Below are positions 3,513 to 33,174 of a stretch of 33,174 bases of DNA, in pieces. The stretch comes from a bacterium (GTDB lineage: Bacteria; JAJVIF01; JAPKYR01), in NCBI GenBank assembly GCA_036397475.1, contig DASWIV010000148.1, positions 1-33,174 on the forward strand, in the 5' to 3' direction. A program made the position numbers and the translations under genes. The first letter of the stretch is position 1. Every line of letters begins with the position of its first letter. The notes beneath the pieces were generated by a model. That model made no database searches. It saw nothing but the letters and a program-made list of their open reading frames with translations, and was not told the origin of the DNA.

Positions 3513-4826
3513 TTATTCTTTCTCGATCAGATCGATAAGTAATTTCGCGGACTCACCTGGAGGATCGTCCTTTATGGTGAGTCTTCTTATATCCGCGAGT
3601 TCCTGCCTCATATGTCCCGCGACCGCGGGATCATCAAGAAGCTCGGTGCATGCGACGTAAAGGTTCGGAAGATTAAAATTCGACTGGATTAATTCCTTCA
3701 CAACTTCCCGTCCTGCCAGCAGGTTTGGAAATGCGTAGAACGGGAGATCCTGGAAGAATTTTCTGCCGATCTTTTCCATCCATTCGCTGGTGATCTTGTA
3801 AAAAGTTACTGCCGGGACAGCCATCAGGAGCGCCAGCTGCACACTGGTCCCCGACTTCACTATCATCAGGTCGGCTTCGTTCATGAGATCGTAGCAATCA
3901 TCGGGCACAAAGAATATTCTGGATGAAACACTGCCAAAGCCTTCCCTGATAACCGACTCGAGCTTTGGCGACGGCACCGGGCAGAAGAACCACAGGTCCG
4001 GATACCTCTTATCCAGGCGCTCTACCGTCTCTCTCAGAACGGGAATATGATATTTCAGTTCGTGGAGCCGGCTTCCGGGAGCGATGCAGATCAGGCGTTT
4101 GCCATCGATCTCGGACGAGTACTTTTCAAGGTATTTCCGCTTTTCAACATATTCCTTGATAATAGGCATCAACGGATGCCCGATATACCTGAAATTCACT
4201 CCCGCATTTTCATAGTGGTTGAGGTTGAACGGATAAGCGACAAGGCAGAGGTCGCACAATTCTGACATGGCGTCGAACCTGTCCCTCGCCGATTTTTTCA
4301 TTCCGGGTATTTTGCGAGCGGTATCGACTGCAGCGTTGATGGCTTTCCTTTCGGCGGTCTTTTTATCCCCGGTCCACCATAGTACAGGTGAAATATAATA
4401 AGCCGTCTTCTGCCTCGCCCCGTCCGGATGAGTCCTGACATCCTTCAAAAGCGACATATTGAACGACCGGTAATCGACCGTTATCACCAGGTCCGGTTTC
4501 TCGATGAAAATCCTCTTCTTCATTCGCTTTTTTGCCGCCAGAAGCTGCGGAAGAATTTTGATTCCCTCAAATATCCCCATTGCGCCCCAGTATGTGGTGT
4601 CTTCCCATATCTCCGCGCCCGCGTCCTTGAGGTGCGACGCGCCCGCTGCAGCGAATCTCAATGGTGGAGCATCGGGATGCCGGTTTCTCCATTCTTCCTG
4701 CAGCCTAGGGAGCAGATGCGACGCGTGCATGTCCCCGGACAGGTCGCCGGTTGAAAAAAGAATCAGGGGAGATTTTCCGGTTGATGATTGTTCTGGCTGG
4801 CTATGGTCGGAAGCTGGCAGTGGCAT
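3513..4826 (-). CDS. lpxB: lipid-A-disaccharide synthase
   Basis: N-terminal STGDLSGDMHASHL (GE/D-SGD motif). YISPVLWWT, APGSR and the near-invariant PNLLAGREVVKELIQ block match E. coli LpxB from memory. It is the last gene of the lpx operon. Confidence 0.9.
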   Translation of the reverse strand: MPLPASDHSQPEQSSTGKSPLILFSTGDLSGDMHASHLLPRLQEEWRNRHPDAPPLRFAAAGASHLKDAGAEIWEDTTYWGAMGIFEGIKILPQLLAAKKRMKKRIFIEKPDLVITVDYRSFNMSLLKDVRTHPDGARQKTAYYISPVLWWTGDKKTAERKAINAAVDTARKIPGMKKSARDRFDAMSELCDLCLVAYPFNLNHYENAGVNFRYIGHPLMPIIKEYVEKRKYLEKYSSEIDGKRLICIAPGSRLHELKYHIPVLRETVERLDKRYPDLWFFCPVPSPKLESVIREGFGSVSSRIFFVPDDCYDLMNEADLMIVKSGTSVQLALLMAVPAVTFYKITSEWMEKIGRKFFQDLPFYAFPNLLAGREVVKELIQSNFNLPNLYVACTELLDDPAVAGHMRQELADIRRLTIKDDPPGESAKLLIDLIEKE

Positions 4827-16698: not shown

Positions 16699-16738
16699 CA
16701 GATTGATTAAATAACATAATTCCCCATGAATTTGAGAT

Positions 16739-17004
16739 CCTGAGCCCAGGTGTCAACCTGGAGCTAATCTCAACACATTCCTGAATATACCCATAACTAT
16801 ATGCGCCAATTCATTAGCGCCACGCTGACGGATCTGTTGAAAAAGTCCAAACTTAACGAAATAAGTCCTGGTGCCGCTGACAACCTCAAGTGAGAATAGA
16901 GATTAACCAGCGAGATCTGACACCGGGTTGTCGTCGGCACCCGTACTTCAAATCAAAGACTTCTTCAACGGCGCCTGCCGTGTGGGCTCAGGTACCAATT
17001 TTTT
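16739..17004 (+). other. structured intergenic element (candidate ncRNA, long leader or MITE-like element), unidentified
   Basis: Perfect 10-bp inverted repeat CCTGAGCCCA (16739-16748) / TGGGCTCAGG (16983-16992), followed by T6 (16999-17004). Inner 16-bp stem at 16870-16885 / 16926-16941 with 2 mismatches. Small hairpins at 16745-16761 and 16802-16820. Confidence 0.3.
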
Positions 17005-17400: not shown

Positions 17401-17419
17401 TATTATATCGTCATATATC

Positions 17420-17448
17420 TTGCCAGATACAATATAATATGGTATACT
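17420..17448 (+). promoter_or_regulatory. sigma70-like promoter
   Basis: TTGCCA (17420-17425), 17-nt spacer, TATACT (17443-17448). The predicted start falls at the 5' end of the closing helix of the downstream leader. Confidence 0.55.
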
Positions 17449-17452
17449 CACA

Positions 17453-17612
17453 CTGTCGGAGAAGGTTTTCCGATGGATAAAGGCACTCCCGTCGCGAGGC
17501 GGGTTCGCAAAGCCAGGAATCTCTCGTAGATAGTCCGGTTGCCCGAAAGTTAACCCTTTCCACAGGTCTTAGAGGGCTCCGGACATAGTGCCGAAGAGCC
17601 CATTTTGTGTTT
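17453..17612 (+). promoter_or_regulatory. structured 5' leader: candidate c-di-GMP-I (GEMM-I-like) riboswitch aptamer plus intrinsic terminator
   Basis: The closing helix pairs 17453-17465 with 17555-17565 (11 bp, two 1-nt bulges). Hairpin CCCGUC-GCGA-GGCGGG (17488-17503) has a GNRA loop and is preceded by AAAGGCAC. The linker is CGCAAAGCC (17506-17514). A second hairpin spans 17513-17538. The terminator GGGCUC...GAGCCC plus a U-tract spans 17574-17612. Confidence 0.45.
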
Positions 17613-18167: not shown

Positions 18168-19310
18168 ATGACGCTTATGAATCTGTTCAAAAAATTAAGG
18201 GAAAAGGGTAATACCCTTGTCCTTTTTGCGATAGCGATCCCGGTTGCTGTAGGTGCGACAGGACTGGTCCTCGACTGGGGACGTGGTGTCTGGACCCGCA
18301 CTGAACTGCAGCGTGCGGCTGATGCCGGCGCGTTATCGGGATGCTCATTTATGAAAGACAGCCAGACAATGGCTGATTACCAGGCATTTAAAAGCGTTCA
18401 GGCAAATTTTGACGGGCCTGATGGCGCTACTTATACTGCCGATGCGGCCCAGGAAACCTACACGGTTCAGCTTAACGAGACCGTTCCCACATTATTCATG
18501 AGGATCTTCGGACGGGAAAACATGGAAGTCGGCGTTTCCGCGACAGCATTAGGACCTCAGCCGATTGGTGGTCTTCGCGGCGGCGGATTTCCATTCGCCA
18601 TTATAAATCCCGACCTGAATAGCAGCCCATGCGACGACCTGGTTCCAAGTAACTGGGGACGTCCGTACATTATCGGATACGGTGAGAATAACGTCATTGT
18701 CGCCGATTGGGCTAATGACTGTGGAGCCGTACCTCCAAATCCCGGTAACGGGGTTGGTAATGGTAATGGTTGGCGAGGGGCATTAGGCCTCAATCAGGAC
18801 GGAACTTACCACGAAGGTGGTGGTGGTTCAGACCTGAAAGAAAACATGATAAACGGCTGGCCCGGGGAAATGAAGCTGGATGATGTTGTTCCCACTGAGA
18901 CCGGTAATATCTCTGGTCCTATCACACAGGGCAGGGACGCCCTGCTTGGATCTGAGCCACTGCCATGGGGCGAATTCGACATCGATACCGACACTCTGGA
19001 ATCGAGAGTTGTCCTCGTTCCCATTGTCCACCTGATCAACACTTCCAGAAACGATACCTTTACGGTACAGGACTGGAATAATGGAGCGGACTGGGATCAG
19101 TCGGAAGTGGTTGTCGACGGATGGGCTCCATTTTTCATCCTGACGACATCTGAACAGGGCGATGTTGACGGTGATGGCAATGCCAACGATCCTGACTGGA
19201 TTGTCGGGTTGTACATACCCGGAGTCGAGATAAACAACTACCTTCCTCCCGAAGAAAATCAGTCTACGGAGGAATGGGGTGTTTACTCAACCAGCAGGCT
19301 GATCGACTAA
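18168..19310 (+). CDS. TadG-like (Tad N-terminal domain) protein, paralog 1
   Basis: N-terminal GNTLVLFAIAIPVAVGATGLVLDWGRGVWTRTELQRAADAGALSG is typical of the TadE/G-like N-domain. The C-terminal part contains VVLVPIV, DGWAPFFILT and an Asp-rich DVDGDGNANDPDW loop. RBS GGAGGG. Confidence 0.85.
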   Translation: MTLMNLFKKLREKGNTLVLFAIAIPVAVGATGLVLDWGRGVWTRTELQRAADAGALSGCSFMKDSQTMADYQAFKSVQANFDGPDGATYTADAAQETYTVQLNETVPTLFMRIFGRENMEVGVSATALGPQPIGGLRGGGFPFAIINPDLNSSPCDDLVPSNWGRPYIIGYGENNVIVADWANDCGAVPPNPGNGVGNGNGWRGALGLNQDGTYHEGGGGSDLKENMINGWPGEMKLDDVVPTETGNISGPITQGRDALLGSEPLPWGEFDIDTDTLESRVVLVPIVHLINTSRNDTFTVQDWNNGADWDQSEVVVDGWAPFFILTTSEQGDVDGDGNANDPDWIVGLYIPGVEINNYLPPEENQSTEEWGVYSTSRLID

Positions 19311-19399: not shown

Positions 19400-19434
19400 G
19401 GCGCCTCCTCACGGGGGCGCCTGCTTTATTTATT
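19400..19434 (+). terminator. rho-independent terminator
   Basis: 9-bp stem GGCGCCTCC / GGGGGCGCC (one G-U pair) with loop TCAC, followed by TGCTTTATTTATT. Confidence 0.7.
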
Positions 19435-19448
19435 CAAATTATGTGTAC

Positions 19449-19751
19449 ATAGGCTCATCCGTAAGGATGGCGCCAATGCATCCGCTTCACCGTGGTAACA
19501 TGACAATCCGATAAGCCGCAGCATTAGCCCCAGGTTAACACCTGGGCCTAGGTGCCGGGACCCGACTTTCATAGGCCCATCCGTTAAGCCGCAACATTAG
19601 CCCCGGGTTAACACCTGGGCCTAGGTGCCTGGACCCAACTTTCATAGGCCCATCCGTAAGGATGGCGCCAATGCATCCGCTTCACCGTGGTAACATGACA
19701 ATCCGATAAGCCGCAACATTAGCCCCAGGTTAACACCTGGGCCTAGGTGCC
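19449..19751 (+). repeat. 122-bp tandem repeat, copies R1 (19449-19570), R2 (19571-19643, 49-bp internal deletion), R3 (19644-19751)
   Basis: Read directly from the sequence. Each unit begins ATAGGCCCATCCGTAAGGATGG and contains hairpins CCATCC-GTAA-GGATGG and CCCAGGT-TAAC-ACCTGGG. Confidence 0.9.
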
Positions 19752-20264
19752 ATTATAAAATTCCATTGGCTCTCCTTGTTTATGTAACACATAATCAACC
19801 GCATTCTTTACCTCTTCAAATGTCCATTTATACATCGTACTTCCATGTCGTGCCCATCGTTTTCTATGATTATTTTCGAATCCAGCGAGGTTCAAATGCC
19901 GGCTTGAATATGCCTTGAAATCTCTCAGGATATTGGATGGATCAGTAGCCGCCTGAACCACAACATGAACATGGTTTGACCTCACATGAACTGCGAACAA
20001 TCTCCATTTCCTGTACTCACATACTTCAATTATAGCTTTCAGAACGATTTTTCTACGTGATTCATCCATTTTATAGGCAGGCTGGGTCATCAGAGATTCT
20101 TCATGTGATGCTATTCCTGGTTTATTTCCAGCCTGGTATTCGCTGTGAGCGACACCTGTTCGGTAGCGAGAGTATTTTTCGCGACCATGCATTACTTTTC
20201 CGTAGCATGAAAAAGTGATGTGGTATGCCATTGGGTATTTTGAGAAATGTTGATTCTTACTCAT
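19743..20264 (-). CDS. Y1/HUH transposase, IS200-like/REP-associated tyrosine transposase (RAYT)-like
   Basis: YHITF N-terminal strand, HUH motif SNHVHVVVQ and a C-terminal catalytic-Tyr region AVDYVLHKQ. I chose the start at ATG 20264, which has AAGGAG 7 nt upstream. The last codons and the stop lie inside repeat R3. The gene is AT-richer than its neighbours. Confidence 0.8.
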   Translation of the reverse strand: MSKNQHFSKYPMAYHITFSCYGKVMHGREKYSRYRTGVAHSEYQAGNKPGIASHEESLMTQPAYKMDESRRKIVLKAIIEVCEYRKWRLFAVHVRSNHVHVVVQAATDPSNILRDFKAYSSRHLNLAGFENNHRKRWARHGSTMYKWTFEEVKNAVDYVLHKQGEPMEFYNGT

Positions 20265-20359
20265 CAACCTACTCCTTATATTTAGCTTTTTATAAGTAGT
20301 ACGTATCTGAGGCATTAAAACTGACAGGAAAATTCAAGTTATTAAAAAATAATTGAGTC

Positions 20360-20809
20360 TAGGCCCATCCGTAAGGATGGCGCTAATGCATCCGCTTCCC
20401 CGTGGAAACATGACTATCGCAAAAGCCGCAGCATTAGCCCCAGGTTAACACCTGGGCCTACGTGCCTGGACCCGACTTTCATAGGCCCATCCGTAAGGAT
20501 GGCGCTAATGCTTCCGCTTCACCGTGGTAACATGACAATCTGATAAGCCGCAACATTAGCCCCAGGTTTACACCTGGGCCTACGTGCCTGGACCCAACTT
20601 TCATAGGCCCATCCGTAAGGATGGCGCTAATGCATCCGCTTCTCCGTGGAAACATGACAATCTGATAAGCCGCAGCATTAGCCCCAGGTTAACACCTGGG
20701 CCTACGTGCCTGGACCCGACTTTCATAGGCCCATCCGTAAGGATGGTGCCAATACATCCGCTTCACCGTGGTAACATGACAATCTGATAAGCCGCAGCAT
20801 TAGCCCCGG
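20360..20809 (+). repeat. 122-bp tandem repeat, copies R4 (20360-20480), R5 (20481-20602), R6 (20603-20724), R7 (20725-20809, truncated)
   Basis: Same unit and orientation as R1-R3. These copies carry side-specific substitutions: CCTACGTGCC versus CCTAGGTGCC, GCGCTAATGC versus GCGCCAATGC, and AATCTGATAAG versus AATCCGATAAG. Confidence 0.9.
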
Positions 20810-20841
20810 TTGCCAAATATCCATATATACCTTTTTATATC

Positions 20842-20870
20842 TTGCCATTTTTATTATATTATGAAATAAT
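20842..20870 (+). promoter_or_regulatory. sigma70-like promoter candidate for TadG-like paralog 2
   Basis: TTGCCA (20842-20847), 17-nt spacer, AATAAT (20865-20870). The context TATATCTTGCCA is shared with the promoter at 17420. Confidence 0.4.
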
Positions 20871-21106
20871 TTCCGTGTGGATCGGTTGGTTCCGGGTAAA
20901 AGGCGTCCCCTTGACCAGGTAGTCAATTAAACCATTGCTGAACATCATGAGTTGGTTCCACTGTCTGATTTTCTGTTCCGGGCAGTCTAACGAGCGGCAT
21001 TCATTGAAATTTTTATGAGATTCAATAGTTGTTGCATCTAATTTGGTGACTGGATAGCAGGGTTTATCACAGCGTTTCTAAATTGTTCGAGGTATTGAGG
21101 AAAAAA

Positions 21107-22228
21107 ATGAATTTAACGAGTTTCTTTGGAAGAATCCGCGAGAAGGGTAACACTCTCGTTCTTTTCGCGATCACGGTTCCCGTACTGGTCGGCATGACTG
21201 GACTCGTGCTAGACTGGGGAATGGGAGTCTGGACACGTACAGAGTTACAGAGAGCCGCCGACGCCGGTGCGCTGGCCGGATGCCACTGGCTTGACGATGA
21301 GACTATGGCTGATTTCAAAGCCCGCGAGCTCGTCAACAGCAACTTCGATGGCTGCGACTCTATTACCTGCTCGGCAAACCTTGTCGATGAGACATTTACG
21401 GTCGAATTGACAGAGGATGTCCCGACCATGTTCATGAGGATCTTCGGACGCGATACGATGCACGTCCGTGTCGACGCTACCGCCATCGCTCCAATGGAGA
21501 TCGGCGGACTCAGAGCCCACATCTGGCCCTTCGGACTCATCAACCCGGACTTCAACAACGACCCGTGCGACGATCTGACGTCAGCGAATTACGGCACCCC
21601 GATCATCATCGGCTACGGCGAACCTAACACGATGGTTGAGCATTGGTCTAATGGAACCTGTTCACCTGTACCGCCGGCGCCAGCAGGGAATAAGTCTGCC
21701 AATGGCTGGCGCGGTGCGCTGTCTCTCGGAGCTAGCGGCGGAAACACTCTTAAGCAGAACATGATATTTGGATATGAAGGTGATATTCAGATCGGCGATA
21801 CCGTTCTGACTGAAACAGGAAATATGGACGGTCCGTTCTCGCAGGGACGCGAACAGCGCCTTGGTCTTGAGCCTTCACTATGGCAGGATTTTGACCCCGA
21901 ATACGATAAATACGATAGCCGTGTTGTGCTTGTGCCTATCGTTCACCTGATAAATGTGAACCGGCAGGATGAATATACTTCACAGGATTACCTCAATGGC
22001 GCTAAATGGGATAATGGCCGGGCGGTTGTTGACGGATTCGCGCCTTTCTGGATTCTTACCGAAGAGGAACAGGGCGATGTTAATGGCGACGGCAATCCCA
22101 ATAACGATGGCGACTGGATTGTCGGATATTTTATCCCGGGAATCAACGTCAACGATTACCTGCACCCGGACCCGGTTCCTAATCCTGAAGATTGGGGCAT
22201 CCGGTCAACACCGCGACTGATCGATTAA
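21107..22228 (+). CDS. TadG-like (Tad N-terminal domain) protein, paralog 2
   Basis: It is collinear with 18168-19310 over its whole length, including GNTLVLFAI..GLVLDWG.GVWTRTELQRAADAGAL, SRVVLVPIVHLIN, EQGDVNGDGNPNNDGDW and the C-terminal RLID. I chose ATG 21107 (GAGG upstream) rather than the TTG at 21083. Confidence 0.85.
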   Translation: MNLTSFFGRIREKGNTLVLFAITVPVLVGMTGLVLDWGMGVWTRTELQRAADAGALAGCHWLDDETMADFKARELVNSNFDGCDSITCSANLVDETFTVELTEDVPTMFMRIFGRDTMHVRVDATAIAPMEIGGLRAHIWPFGLINPDFNNDPCDDLTSANYGTPIIIGYGEPNTMVEHWSNGTCSPVPPAPAGNKSANGWRGALSLGASGGNTLKQNMIFGYEGDIQIGDTVLTETGNMDGPFSQGREQRLGLEPSLWQDFDPEYDKYDSRVVLVPIVHLINVNRQDEYTSQDYLNGAKWDNGRAVVDGFAPFWILTEEEQGDVNGDGNPNNDGDWIVGYFIPGINVNDYLHPDPVPNPEDWGIRSTPRLID

Positions 22229-25980: not shown

Positions 25981-26061
25981 CATGCCGGGTATGCCGGGAA
26001 GCTGATCCCGCTATGGCATCTCTTCCGGCAAAAAAACACTGACCATATGCGTCTCCCCTGG
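25981..26061 (+). repeat. 81-bp direct repeat, copy 1 (relic of the 3' end and downstream region of the lipoprotein gene)
   Basis: Near-identical to 26606-26686 except for a short divergent patch (AAAAAAACACT versus GGAAGACGCT). Confidence 0.85.
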
Positions 26062-26195
26062 CTTTTCGTTGAGCTTTATCATATTGCCTTCAGATTCACA
26101 GGCAGATTCATCTATCCTGAAATTATATTTTTACTAATAAATAAAATGTGTTATTATTTCGCCATTAACCAACCATCTCTTCAAGGGGAAGACTC

Positions 26196-26630
26196 ATGAA
26201 GAAATCTTTCATCTCAATTCTGCTAATTGTCCCATTAGCGCTTGCTTTGTTCATTCCATCCTGTGGAGGAGGCTCTCCGGAATCTGTCGTGGCAAATTTC
26301 AGCATGGCGGTAATGGATGGCGATATGACCAAGGCCAAAAAATACTGCACCGATACCTTCAACGGCACCTATTTGGCCGGCGCTTCCGCCATGGAGGATA
26401 TGATGCCGGACCTCGGCGAGGATAAGCCAAGTAAATCTGATCTTCTGGAGAATCTTGAGAGCGAGATAAACGGCGAGACCGCCCGGGTATGGTCAAGCGA
26501 CGCAGCTTTTCTTGTATATGAATTAAAAAAGGAAGCTGGTGGATGGAAGATCAGCGGCTTCGACATGAGCGCCATGATGGAAGGCTTAGGCGATGTGATG
26601 GGAGACATGCCGGGTATGCCGGGAAGCTGA
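26196..26630 (+). CDS. lipoprotein, function unknown (possibly DUF4878-like)
   Basis: Signal peptide with lipobox FIPSCGGGS. SPESVVANFSMAVMDGDMTKAKKY resembles small SnoaL/DUF4878-type lipoproteins. The tail is Met/Gly/Pro-rich. Confidence 0.75.
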   Translation: MKKSFISILLIVPLALALFIPSCGGGSPESVVANFSMAVMDGDMTKAKKYCTDTFNGTYLAGASAMEDMMPDLGEDKPSKSDLLENLESEINGETARVWSSDAAFLVYELKKEAGGWKISGFDMSAMMEGLGDVMGDMPGMPGS

Positions 26631-26686
26631 TCCCGCTACGGCATCTCTTCCGGCAGGAAGACGCTGACCATATGCGTCTCCCCGGG
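26606..26686 (+). repeat. 81-bp direct repeat, copy 2
   Basis: Covers the last codons of 26196-26630 and about 55 bp downstream. It matches 25981-26061. Confidence 0.85.
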
Positions 26687-26755
26687 ATTCCCGTGGAGAA
26701 CTACCATATTTCCTTTCACAAAACTTCTCGACGCATCCGCAATTTTCGTAAATGC

Positions 26756-27904: not shown

Positions 27905-29038
27905 GTGACACAGTCTAAAGTAGCAGTCATAAAAACCACACCGGAAACAGTCGTCGACGATTACCGTCAGGCGATGAAACTCGCCGACATCGAAAAGCAC
28001 ATCGACGTCACCAAAACCACCATCCTCAAAGACAACATTTCGTGGCATTACCCGTTCCCCGGATCGAACACCACACCGTGGCAGATGGAAGGCTCCATCC
28101 TTGGACTTCAGGACGCCGGTAACACGGATATTGTCTGCGTCCAGAACGAGACAGTCGTAACTCGCGCGAAAAAAGGCGAGCAGCTTAACAAATACGACAT
28201 CTGCTTCGAAAAACACGACATCCCGGTCCTGTACAACTTCCGTAAGGACCACATGAAATGGATCAAGTACAAACCCAAGGCGAAAATGCGTGTCCTCGAC
28301 TTCATTTTTCCGAAGGGATTCATCATCCCCGATTACTTCCTCGGGAAAAATATCCTGCACCAGCCGACAGTAAAGTGCCACATTTACACCACAACCACCG
28401 GAGCGATGAAAAACGCATTCGGCGGCCTTTTGAACACCTCCCGGCACATGACACATTCGGTCATACATGAAACTCTTGTTGACCTTCTCGCGATCCAGAA
28501 GGAAATTCATACCGGCATTTTCGCCGTGATGGACGGCACCACCGCGGGAAACGGTCCGGGTCCAAGGACAATGATCCCTGTCGAGAAGGATGTCATTCTC
28601 GCGAGCGCCGACCAGGTCGCGATCGACGCTGTCTCGGCGTCGATGATGGGATTCAATCCGATGGACATCGGATACATTCATATCGCGCACCACGCCGGAC
28701 TCGGTATGGGTGAACTCGATGGAATCGAAATTGTAGGCGACAAAGAGGTAGCTAACGAACAATGGGGATTCCACGTCGGCGCGAACGCCGCCGCCCGCTA
28801 CGGTGGCCATCCGCTGTGGTTCGGTCCCGGAAAACACATCCAGAAACTGTTCTTCCAGACACCGCTTGTGTATTTGTTCATTCTCGCGTCATATGTGTAC
28901 CACGACGCGATCCAGTGGCCATTTGTGAGTAAGAAGATTTACGATAAGTGGCTGGTCGAAAGCAAATGGGGACGTTTATTTGATGATTACGGCAAAATGG
29001 AAGAACCCCGGGAAATATCTGTCGAAGTCGGCACCTGA
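27905..29038 (+). CDS. DUF362 domain-containing protein with C-terminal hydrophobic extension
   Basis: GTG start. SKVAVIKT at the N-terminus and the VKCHIYTTTTGAMKNAFGGLL block are typical of DUF362, as is the later DQVAIDAV motif. Confidence 0.8.
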   Translation: MTQSKVAVIKTTPETVVDDYRQAMKLADIEKHIDVTKTTILKDNISWHYPFPGSNTTPWQMEGSILGLQDAGNTDIVCVQNETVVTRAKKGEQLNKYDICFEKHDIPVLYNFRKDHMKWIKYKPKAKMRVLDFIFPKGFIIPDYFLGKNILHQPTVKCHIYTTTTGAMKNAFGGLLNTSRHMTHSVIHETLVDLLAIQKEIHTGIFAVMDGTTAGNGPGPRTMIPVEKDVILASADQVAIDAVSASMMGFNPMDIGYIHIAHHAGLGMGELDGIEIVGDKEVANEQWGFHVGANAAARYGGHPLWFGPGKHIQKLFFQTPLVYLFILASYVYHDAIQWPFVSKKIYDKWLVESKWGRLFDDYGKMEEPREISVEVGT

Positions 29039-29115
29039 AAATCCCAGGCACGACAGTAATGGAGTGCTCTGCTAGCGCAAATTTTCATACTCAATTGATG
29101 GTTGGTTATGTTCGG

Positions 29116-30282
29116 TCATTTCCCCTGACTCAGCCACCTTACGTACTCCACTACATCCACATTCCAGACCTCAAACCCCCTCCTGCTCGCTTCAAATTCA
29201 ATCACTTTCTCCCCCCCACTAATTCCCGAAAACTCTACACTCTCGATAACAGCGTCATTGTCGCTTTCAAAAATCTCGAAGCAGCACCGCAATCCTGTCC
29301 CGCATTTCATCCTCTCCCACAACTCTGCCCTCTCTACATCAGTTAATTTCACTCCCTCCATCTCCTGCCCGTTCCCGACCTGCCTGACTTCCTTCACCAG
29401 CGGCATCTTTTCTATCCCGGGCAATTCGCATTTCACTTTCAGGTGTTTTGTATTTTCAAGGTACTCAAACCCATACGCCTGTAGAAACTCGACCGGATAA
29501 TCCGACATCCCCATGACCATCTCCGCGTACGCTTCCACTCCCTCCGCGTTTCCGCTCGAGTACTTGAGCTTCAACTTATCGATAATCTCATTCCGCTCGA
29601 CAACTTCTTCCTGGAACCTGGCGTGTTTCTCCTCCCATTTCTTCAGCCTCTCACCGTACTCCCCCATCACCTCGTCGCGCTTCGTTTCCCACACCTTCAG
29701 ATTTTCAAGATACCTTTTCTTAGTCTCATCAAGCTCCCTGACCTGCGCCTCCCATTCATCATAGTCCTTCTTCCATCGTGCCTTAGCCTGCATTTCCTTC
29801 AGCCCTTTGAATAATCCGCCGCCCTCGACCTTGTACTTTTCACCATTTTCTTTCGGTTCATGCGGAATTTCCCCTTCCGGCTCTTTCGGTTTCGGATTCA
29901 GCTTTGGCTCATCCGGCCTCTGCGTACGAAAAACCGCCTTCGACTTTAAATTCTCCCACACTAACGGCTTGTAGTTATCGATCCCGTACCTTAGCACTCC
30001 GGCATATTTTTCGATTTCTTTTTTCGCGTCCGACGTCAGGTGCTCAGCCCAGACGTCCCACTCCCCACGGGTTTCAGCGATCCCTTTTTTCACTCCGGCG
30101 ATCTGCGACGCAAGCAGCCATTCCTCCGCATGCTTCTCAAAGCTTGCCTTCAGCGAATCGGCTATCGCCTCGACAATAAACGCGTGGCGTCCTTCGATCG
30201 TACGTTCAATCCCTAATTCGCTATTGGAAATTTCCGCGGTGTAAATCTTTGATCCGTCTTCTTTATCTATTTCTTTCAACAT
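29116..30282 (-). CDS. coiled-coil protein related to the N-terminal module of Mrr-type restriction-system proteins; no nuclease domain
   Basis: K/E/W-rich coiled coil, then GNAEGVEAYAEMVMGMSDYPVEF...LKVKCELPGIEKMPLVKEV...CCFEIFESDNDAVIESVEFSG. I recall this module preceding Mrr_cat domains in other bacteria (unverified). It starts 18 nt downstream of recN. Confidence 0.65.
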   Translation of the reverse strand: MLKEIDKEDGSKIYTAEISNSELGIERTIEGRHAFIVEAIADSLKASFEKHAEEWLLASQIAGVKKGIAETRGEWDVWAEHLTSDAKKEIEKYAGVLRYGIDNYKPLVWENLKSKAVFRTQRPDEPKLNPKPKEPEGEIPHEPKENGEKYKVEGGGLFKGLKEMQAKARWKKDYDEWEAQVRELDETKKRYLENLKVWETKRDEVMGEYGERLKKWEEKHARFQEEVVERNEIIDKLKLKYSSGNAEGVEAYAEMVMGMSDYPVEFLQAYGFEYLENTKHLKVKCELPGIEKMPLVKEVRQVGNGQEMEGVKLTDVERAELWERMKCGTGLRCCFEIFESDNDAVIESVEFSGISGGEKVIEFEASRRGFEVWNVDVVEYVRWLSQGK

Positions 30283-33001: not shown

Positions 33002-33174
33002 TGGGAACCCTAAACGCCGGAGCGCGGGATTCCCATCACGCATGCATAATAAAAAGAAATGCGTGATGGGAGCCCTAAACGCCGGAGCGCAGGATTCCCA
33101 TCACGCATGTATAATAAATAGAAATTCGTGATGGGAACCCTAAACGCCGGAGCGCGGGATTCCCATCACGCATG
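33002..33174. repeat. 65-bp tandem repeat of long hairpins (at least 2.7 copies), running off the right window edge
   Basis: Unit starts at about 32996 (partial), 33061 and 33126. Each unit has a 12-bp stem GCGTGATGGGAA / TTCCCATCACGC around CCCTAAACGCCGGAGCGCGGGA, followed by an AT-rich 16-nt linker. Confidence 0.85.

Follow-up and report, generated by a model that had tools for sequence, protein, structure and literature searches.

A transposase gene enclosed by tandem copies of a long, hairpin-rich repeat raises the question of whether the repeats belong to the enzyme or only share its neighbourhood. Such a locus lies in a 33,174-nt stretch of bacterial DNA (contig DASWIV010000148.1 of assembly GCA_036397475.1; the whole stretch is called the window here), where copies of a 122-bp unit flank a minus-strand gene for a HUH/Y1 transposase to the left and to the right. 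A sequence-only reading of the window had pointed out this arrangement and suggested either a new class of repeat resembling repetitive extragenic palindromes (REPs) and bacterial interspersed mosaic elements (BIMEs), or an RNA-encoding repeat co-opted by the transposase. Our analysis indicates that the locus is probably a class-3 TnpA_Y1 REPtron, in which BIME-2-like arrays of the enzyme's own palindromes flank the Y1 gene on either side, because spaced palindromes of alternating orientation that are tandemly repeated together with their linkers are BIMEs.

The gene was classified by its domain, motifs and fold. The longer open reading frame (ORF) at 19743-20315 would give 190 aa. Homologues begin at an internal ATG, at 20264, which gives a protein of 173 aa, and AAGGAG lies 7 nt before this codon. 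Classification with the Pfam Y1_Tnp hidden Markov model, a check proposed in the sequence-only reading, was passed at 34.1 bits against a cut-off of 23 (E = 3.4e-8), and this was the sole Pfam match of the protein. More than 1,276 homologues were found, mostly of 164-180 aa; among those with taxonomic names Acidobacteriota and Planctomycetota predominate, and several other phyla are represented by some. The protein contains an NHVH motif (...VRSNHVHVVV...) together with RWARHGS and DYVLHKQGEP, and a family alignment of 28 homologues keeps H-V-H, RW[AT]RHGS and Y-x4-Q, with H100, W137, Y158 and Q163 invariant and H98 and V99 conserved in at least 90%. A fold comparison was needed because the family profile, compared by sequence with solved structures, matched no Y1 transposase. 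The AlphaFold2 (AF2) model (mean predicted local distance difference test, pLDDT, 83.8) was closest in a Foldseek search of the PDB to 4ER8, the Escherichia coli TnpA_REP with a REP hairpin, and then to the IS200, IS608 and ISDra2 transposases (top matches 4ER8, 2F4F, 2VJV). The identification of the protein as a HUH/Y1 transposase similar to REP-associated tyrosine transposases (RAYTs) is thus borne out by its Y1_Tnp domain, its motifs and a fold nearest to TnpA_REP. The enzyme is predicted to be catalytically intact and its gene to be single-copy.

Within the Y1 enzymes, class 3 has been described as carrying NHVH, W[TA] and YV[VI][AENY]EQ (Y----Q) motifs in proteins of about 178 aa that consist of the core domain only (PMC6006769). 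The protein in the window resembles this class in length (173 aa), in NHVH, W[TA] and Y----Q, in the taxa of its homologues and in having no accessory domain, and the inner L-H-K residues of its catalytic motif depart from the published consensus. A conserved 'GSVD' segment of the family is missing from residues 25-46, which have KYSRY instead and form the sole low-confidence part of the model; this loss may be linked to the altered hairpin described below, or it may be drift. The gene and its upstream spacer (19743-20359) have a GC content of 0.38-0.43 compared to 0.50-0.57 in the flanking Tad and hydantoinase genes, and that of the repeat units is about 0.55. No minus-strand promoter match scored in 20265-20357, the spacer in which the gene's promoter presumably lies.

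By Tandem Repeats Finder (TRF) the 122-bp repeat at 20360-20811 counts 3.7 copies (93% matches, score 792), and the left copies were called as well; a MAFFT alignment of the seven unit copies had a mean column identity of 85%. TRF and alignment together confirmed that seven copies, one with a deletion and two truncated, bracket the minus-strand gene, with unit edges that agree to 1-2 nt with those given earlier. The 21-22-nt cores of the two hairpins in each unit had 6 and 7 matches in the window compared to 0.00 expected. Two finer claims also stood: R2 aligned as a unit of 73 nt from which exactly 49 internal nucleotides are missing, and the copies of each flank share fixed differences, with TAGGTGCC and GCGCC in the left copies and TACGTGCC and GCGCT in the right copies. 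One of these side-specific substitutions is the nucleotide that varies in the foot of the minus-strand element.

It is scarcely conceivable that an assembly artefact inflated a single unit into an array. The same locus was present in three further metagenome contigs (L001, L002, L004), so that repeats occur on both sides of the gene in four independent assemblies, the left spacing of 73 nt and 122 nt (R1-R2-R3) was reproduced in L004, and individual copies are told apart by specific substitutions and, in one case, a clean deletion. The point in favour of an artefact is that L001 and L002 break inside the arrays and have one left unit (R2) and two right units fewer than the window, a deficit that is either real polymorphism or short-read collapse. 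The repeats are real, since the same locus recurs in other metagenome contigs, and their exact copy number may be variable or collapsed in short-read assemblies.

Each unit proved to be an internal inverted repeat with 41-nt arms that are 71% complementary. Comparison of the left arm with the reverse complement of the right arm gave 22 identical positions out of 31, a value reached by none of 2,000 shuffles. The first hairpin, a 26-nt stem-loop on the plus strand, is a REP with foot CATA, arm GGCCCATCC, loop GTAA and arm GGATGGCGC. About 53 nt further on, the opposite strand carries a diverged copy of it, the inverse REP (iREP), with foot CCTA in the left array or CGTA in the right array, arm GGCCCAGGT, loop GTTA and arm ACCTGGGGC, and a 21-nt linker then leads to the next unit. 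Both elements have arms of 9 nt and, like class-3 REPs, a GTAA or GTTA loop, and the apical stems differ by compensatory changes (TCC/GGA in the REP, GGT/ACC in the iREP). The octamer TAGGCCCA occurred 12 times in the window (0.49 expected), six times per strand in strict alternation and confined to the arrays. As the unit is an inverted doublet, the array is therefore a series of regularly spaced palindromes of alternating orientation. The statement that all copies lie on the same strand was correct for the units, but it did not hold for the palindromes within them. A direct doublet, with both hairpins on one strand, was rejected because it gave 12 of 26 identities compared to 17 of 26 for the inverted arrangement by the same count, and because the inverted arrangement gives the 22 of 31 with the basal flanks included, along with the compensatory changes.

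Folded as single-stranded DNA (ssDNA), the REP at 19643-19668 (identical to 20602-20627) gave -6.8 kcal/mol (z = -2.9) with 5 nt unpaired at the foot, and the iREP at 20681-20706 gave -9.8 kcal/mol (z = -5.5). Both folds resemble the published class-3 hairpin, with a 4-5-nt unpaired 5' foot, a stem and a 4-nt GTNA loop. The gene itself reaches into the left array, as had been noticed before: the stop codon (CTA at 19743-19745 on the plus strand) and the last two codons lie within R3, and the TAG stop is part of the foot of the nearest iREP. The coordinates of the units, the hairpins and other features of the window are given in Table 1.

Table 1. Positions of the transposase gene, repeat units, hairpins and nearby features in the window.
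Feature	Position	Strand	Remarks
Class-3 TnpA_Y1 (RAYT-like HUH/Y1) gene	19743..20264	-	173 aa
AT-rich unique spacer	20265..20357	-	between gene start and R4; holds ribosome-binding site
Left BIME-like array (R1-R3)	19448..19751	+	
Right BIME-like array (R4-R6 and partial R7)	20358..20809	+	
Unit R1	19449-19570		122 nt
Unit R2	19571-19643		73 nt; exact 49-nt internal deletion (alignment)
Unit R3	19644-~19751		truncated after iREP foot; ends ...GGTGCC
Units R4, R5, R6	starts 20360, 20482, 20604		
Unit R7	20726-~20809		partial; cut within second hairpin
REPs, left array	19448-19473; 19643-19668	+	regular-expression map
iREPs, left array	19527-19552; 19600-19625; 19722-19747	-	regular-expression map
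REPs, right array	20358-20383; 20480-20505; 20602-20627; 20724-20749	+	regular-expression map
iREPs, right array	20437-20462; 20559-20584; 20681-20706	-	regular-expression map
Solitary degenerate 122-bp unit	16730..16840	- (opposite orientation)	DoxX-Tad intergenic region
Solitary canonical class-3 REP, GCAC-GA-CA-GTAA-TG-GA-GTGC	29041..29070	+	covariance model R1, 22.3 bits, E = 0.002 (whole window)
Intrinsic-terminator-like hairpin	19400..19431	+	ends TadE-TadG1 operon, just before left array

On either side of class-3 genes, several atypical stem-loops have been reported that have a CnGA foot at the 5' end and can occur in many copies per host genome (PMC6006769). We surveyed relatives of the gene in 80 loci from species-representative genomes and several from metagenomes, with 85 related loci used for hairpins and 81 for tandem-repeat counts. 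Most of the genes had, at a distance of 10-30 nt from either end, an inverted repeat of 25-35 nt with a conserved stem-loop that can be written C-n-G-A-G-C / CGC-GA-NN-GNNA-N'N'-GA-GCG. The 85 loci carry the hairpin of Table S1 of PMC6006769 (CCGAGCCGCGACCGTAAGGGAGCGGA, structure .....((((..((....))..)))).), which has a CnGA foot followed by CCGC-GA-NN-GTNA-NN-GA-GCGG, and a stem-loop with a CnGA foot was found on at least one side of the gene in 74 of them. Five of the six base pairs of the relatives' hairpin covary, and none of 500 shuffles reached the observed score. A text search of the literature with the hairpin sequence returned no relevant paper, the motif being found only in the supplement of PMC6006769.

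The arrangement of the hairpins was mostly inverted about the gene. A forward hairpin upstream together with a reverse one downstream was the pattern of 45 loci; seven had all hairpins reverse, five had all forward and four had reverse upstream with forward downstream, while 13 had hairpins on one side only and 11 gave no strict match. The flank repeat recurred elsewhere within 4 kb in 19 of 81 loci, and the strict hairpin pattern was seen 30 times at more than 400 bp from the gene compared to 7.5 expected by chance. In several relatives the downstream repeat abuts or overlaps the 3' end of the gene. Further class-3 loci carried the hairpin subtypes CCGC-GC-GC-GTCA-GC-AA-GCGG and GAGCCGCGCACGAAGTAAGCGG (L005, L024; L073, L074, L081, L044), and the variety of the family repeat therefore exceeds the one consensus that has been published.

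Several observations weigh against reading the locus as a class-3 REPtron with arrays of its own palindromes. The protein scored below both NCBIfam cut-offs relevant to it, with 26.7 bits for REP_Tyr_transpos (cut-off 80) and 29.6 bits for IS200 (NF033573; cut-off 55), and binding, cleavage and transposition have not been assayed for any class-3 protein (PMC6006769). A covariance model built from 84 canonical class-3 hairpins (model R1, distinct from unit R1) and run with filters off found in 19440-20820 only the 8-nt apex CCGTAAGG (4.2 bits, E = 1.5 in 1.4 kb). This result ruled out the first hairpin as a canonical class-3 REP by score, and the homology of these hairpins to class-3 REPs is therefore argued from their geometry, loop and foot and not from a significant score. 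The same model recovered a solitary canonical REP between the convergent ORFs 27905-29038 (DUF362) and 29116-30282 (Table 1), which may point to another REP type, a second or an ancestral one, in this genome, and the current substrate of the enzyme could be this canonical type. Only one extra copy of the unit, degenerate, was present in the 33-kb window (Table 1), with a match to the second hairpin at 16743-16764 (minus strand, 3 mismatches) and 25-nt inverted matches at 16809-16833, whereas high-copy dispersal is a hallmark of REPs. A scan of one metagenome collection with a 24-nt core gave the same locus only, and as that collection evidently lacks the samples holding L001 and L002 this absence proves little. 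Finally, array edges were considered as markers of the cleavage site and dropped, as they had no consistent phase in relatives; in the window both arrays begin at the foot, which as a pointer to the cleavage site is suggestive only.

The hairpins of the window also differ from the canonical type in detail. Their feet are CATA, CCTA and CGTA in place of CnGA, they have no G·A internal loop, and Watson-Crick A-T/T-A or A-T/G-C pairs replace the tandem G·A in stems whose basal part is different as well. A fully paired stem has a precedent in the family, since one related locus carries a fully paired variant. In that locus (L037) the hairpin in the flanks of the gene at 4001-4498 reads CGCGGGC-GTCA-GCCCGCG.

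Across the relatives, tandem repetition was concentrated at the transposase gene. In the 150 bp next to the gene, tandem repeats of period 15 or more had a density of 1.45 per kb compared to 0.087 per kb elsewhere, an enrichment of about 17-fold (25 of 81 loci). A neighbour in the same orientation within 130 bp was found for 51 of 184 gene-proximal hairpins compared to 2 of 93 distal ones, and the distal hairpins that had a partner mostly formed inverted doublets. The three closest relatives (53-55% identity) have arrays of canonical hairpins with 49-67-bp units, with at least three copies upstream in L003, five upstream in L086 and three downstream in L087. L043 has two units upstream and four downstream on one strand, and in L017, L031, L047 and L051 inverted doublets flank both sides. 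The view that the architecture departs from the textbook was therefore not supported, since each unit is a doublet of inverted hairpins, REP-associated transposases with tandem doublets around them have been published, and these last five loci likewise have doublets or one-strand arrays flanking the gene. Same-orientation arrays are typical of the vicinity of class-3 genes, and neither this nor the concentration of tandem repeats beside the gene is mentioned in the earlier papers we compared; in the main text of PMC6006769 the word 'tandem' does not occur. The clustering and the orientation pattern are compatible with the amplification models for E. coli BIMEs. Homology between the unit of the window and those of relatives was not accepted, because it consisted of a single 13-nt match (CCCGACTTTCATA) to the downstream flank of L003, which is too weak. 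Satellites of 16-19 bp in 6 to 14 copies, without hairpin sequence, adjoined the class-3 hairpin by the gene in three loci (L029 4357-4618; L068 4533-4713; L019 4528-4621).

Another idea is that the arrays are unrelated to the enzyme, being an ordinary satellite or structured-RNA array made by slippage or unequal recombination with the Y1 gene there by chance. We regard this as quite improbable. The canonical class-3 model gives the units no score, the window contains a second, unrelated palindromic tandem array of 65-bp period (33002-33174), and the unit folds better than its shuffles (z = -2.6 to -3.5 for R6, a folding check that the sequence-only reading had proposed), all of which would suit a satellite or an RNA. 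The ~17-fold enrichment at class-3 genes speaks against it, as do the agreement of geometry, GTNA loop and Cn(T/G)A foot with the family REP, the overlap of the stop codon with the foot and the abutting or overlapping downstream repeats of several relatives. The period of 122 nt is also not divisible by 3. Rfam gave no match to the array, whether at the gathering threshold or with E allowed up to 10 (the sole overlap, mir-1304 at E = 6.9, is noise), and none in 12 related loci. No covariation was seen among the seven copies, because they are too similar. The proposal of an RNA-encoding repeat accordingly found no support: it has neither an Rfam match nor covariation among copies, and what relatives keep is the hairpin and not the longer unit.

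The closest architectural counterpart is the E. coli REPtron with its BIME-2 elements. BIME-2 consist of tandem REP/iREP doublets that are conserved within a locus, vary in number between strains and border tnpA_REP in REPtrons, and TnpA_REP cleaves and joins single-stranded BIMEs in vitro; unit addition has been modelled as nick-primed synthesis or as rolling replication of an excised unit (PMC3333891). The window shares with this system the alternating, regularly spaced palindromes, the homogeneous copies and the arrays on both sides of the gene (PMC3333891, PMC2817692), and its copy number likewise differs between assemblies, which in its case is possibly due to short-read collapse. It differs in its longer unit (122 bp, with a spacer of ~53 nt), and genome-wide dispersal of that unit is hypothetical. 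The E. coli enzyme belongs to class 2.2, with a GTAG foot and a YxxxNP-type motif, whereas that of the window belongs to class 3; the GT[AG]G foot that goes with class-2 TnpA_REP is replaced here by CnTA, and the REP_Tyr_transpos score is below its cut-off. With respect to class 3 (PMC6006769), the gene is similarly flanked by small stem-loops with a 4-nt foot, 8-9-nt arms and a GTNA loop in a REPtron-like layout, but the foot is CnTA and not CnGA (the second position being variable here too) and the tandem G·A is absent. The notion of a new REP/BIME-like class was thus right in that the repeats are REP/BIME-like partners of the gene, but the class is not new, as class-3 hairpins and the REPtron layout were already published. 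TIRYTs and their TIRtrons (PMC3733652) are also Y1 genes flanked by inverted repeats rather than GTAG REPs, and that paper singled out an acidobacterial group and noted that REP clusters are often reiterated in tandem along with flanking DNA. Most TIRYTs, however, are class 2.1 with DnaA-like helix-turn-helix (HTH) domains and a GGGGWSAS motif (PMC6006769), neither of which is found in the window protein.

The position of the module gives some room to a different explanation. It lies between the paralogous TadG-like genes 18168-19310 and 21083-22228, and in three distant relatives TadE-TadG-TadG are contiguous with 60-100-bp spacers; since the operon is contiguous there, the module seems either to have been inserted into the TadG-TadG gap or to have arisen by its expansion. 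An autonomous IS200/IS605-like element, in which the gene and one-strand hairpin ends move by 'peel and paste' and the arrays are multimerised ends, would interrupt the operon in this way, and would fit the single orientation of the units on both sides, a gene that is AT-richer than its neighbours and a class-1-like Y----Q motif. Class 3 has indeed been likened to insertion sequences as well as to REPtrons, and Solibacter noted to have three related genes (PMC6006769). The window protein shares the HUH/Y1 fold with the IS200/IS605 TnpA enzymes (IS608, ISDra2, IS200), which recognise hairpins with a 5' guide tetranucleotide, a layout comparable to that of the window. We nevertheless hold such an element to be unlikely. 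Hairpins occur on both strands of each unit, leaving no same-strand pair of left-end and right-end hairpins, the IS200 equivalog score is below its cut-off, and the exact protein was seen at this one locus only, in four assemblies. In most relatives, moreover, the flanking hairpins are inverted, which misfits one-strand excision.

Other features of the neighbourhood were noted. The leader of the second TadG gene (20826-21080, plus strand) is a degenerate copy of the operon promoter and leader, with 72% identity between 17404-17446 and 20826-20868 and a promoter-like TTGCCA-17-nt-AATAAT. A c-di-GMP-I riboswitch (17472-17546, plus strand; RF01051, 50 bits) lies upstream of the TadE/TadG pilus genes, and the GGC variant model gave 56 bits for it, just below the cut-off of 59. 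No second c-di-GMP riboswitch scored upstream of TadG2, where only the degenerate promoter/leader copy was found. The unrelated tandem repeat at 33002-33174, which runs off the end of the window, has at least 2.7 copies of its 65-bp period (93% matches); its unit is a ~50-nt imperfect palindrome (ATGCGTGATGGGAACCC...GGGATTCCCATCACGCAT) with an AT-rich linker, and it adjoins an NAD kinase gene. A 110-nt direct repeat, 86% identical, occurs at 25981-26090 and 26606-26715, 625 nt apart, around a DUF4878-like ORF.

By analogy with E. coli TnpA_REP and IS608 TnpA, the enzyme of this probable class-3 REPtron would bind the folded hairpin and its 5' foot tetranucleotide in ssDNA at replication forks, cut nearby through a 5'-phosphotyrosine intermediate and rejoin the strands. 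Repeated cleavage, priming and strand transfer beside the gene could then add or remove whole units, and such gain and loss would yield copies that are homogeneous on each side and variable in number; unequal recombination or replication slippage may also contribute. The module would have settled in the gap of the Tad-pilus operon, between the terminator and the promoter-like copy, and the repeat of this lineage would have drifted from the canonical hairpin, from a CnGA to a CnTA foot and from tandem G·A to Watson-Crick pairs. More generally, we put forward only tentatively that class-3 Y1 enzymes may build tandem arrays in cis beside their own gene, by nick-primed re-synthesis or by excision and re-insertion of unit circles, and that enzyme and hairpin may have co-evolved in the lineage of the window (CnGA to CnTA, G·A lost).

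Among the branches of the Y1 (IS200/RAYT) enzymes, class 3 has been studied least, and it has been proposed to stand between insertion sequences and REP transposases that have been domesticated. Neither this locus nor the survey changes the picture of what such loci are: the REPtron layout and the class-3 family were known, and what they add is a diverged hairpin type and the clustering of arrays beside class-3 genes. Hairpins that have drifted in foot and G·A loop, with a canonical hairpin 9 kb away, make a convenient natural test pair for substrate recognition. If arrays are indeed built in cis and hairpin and enzyme have co-evolved, the two would be a natural substrate pair for how class-3 enzymes read their hairpins and choose the cleavage site.

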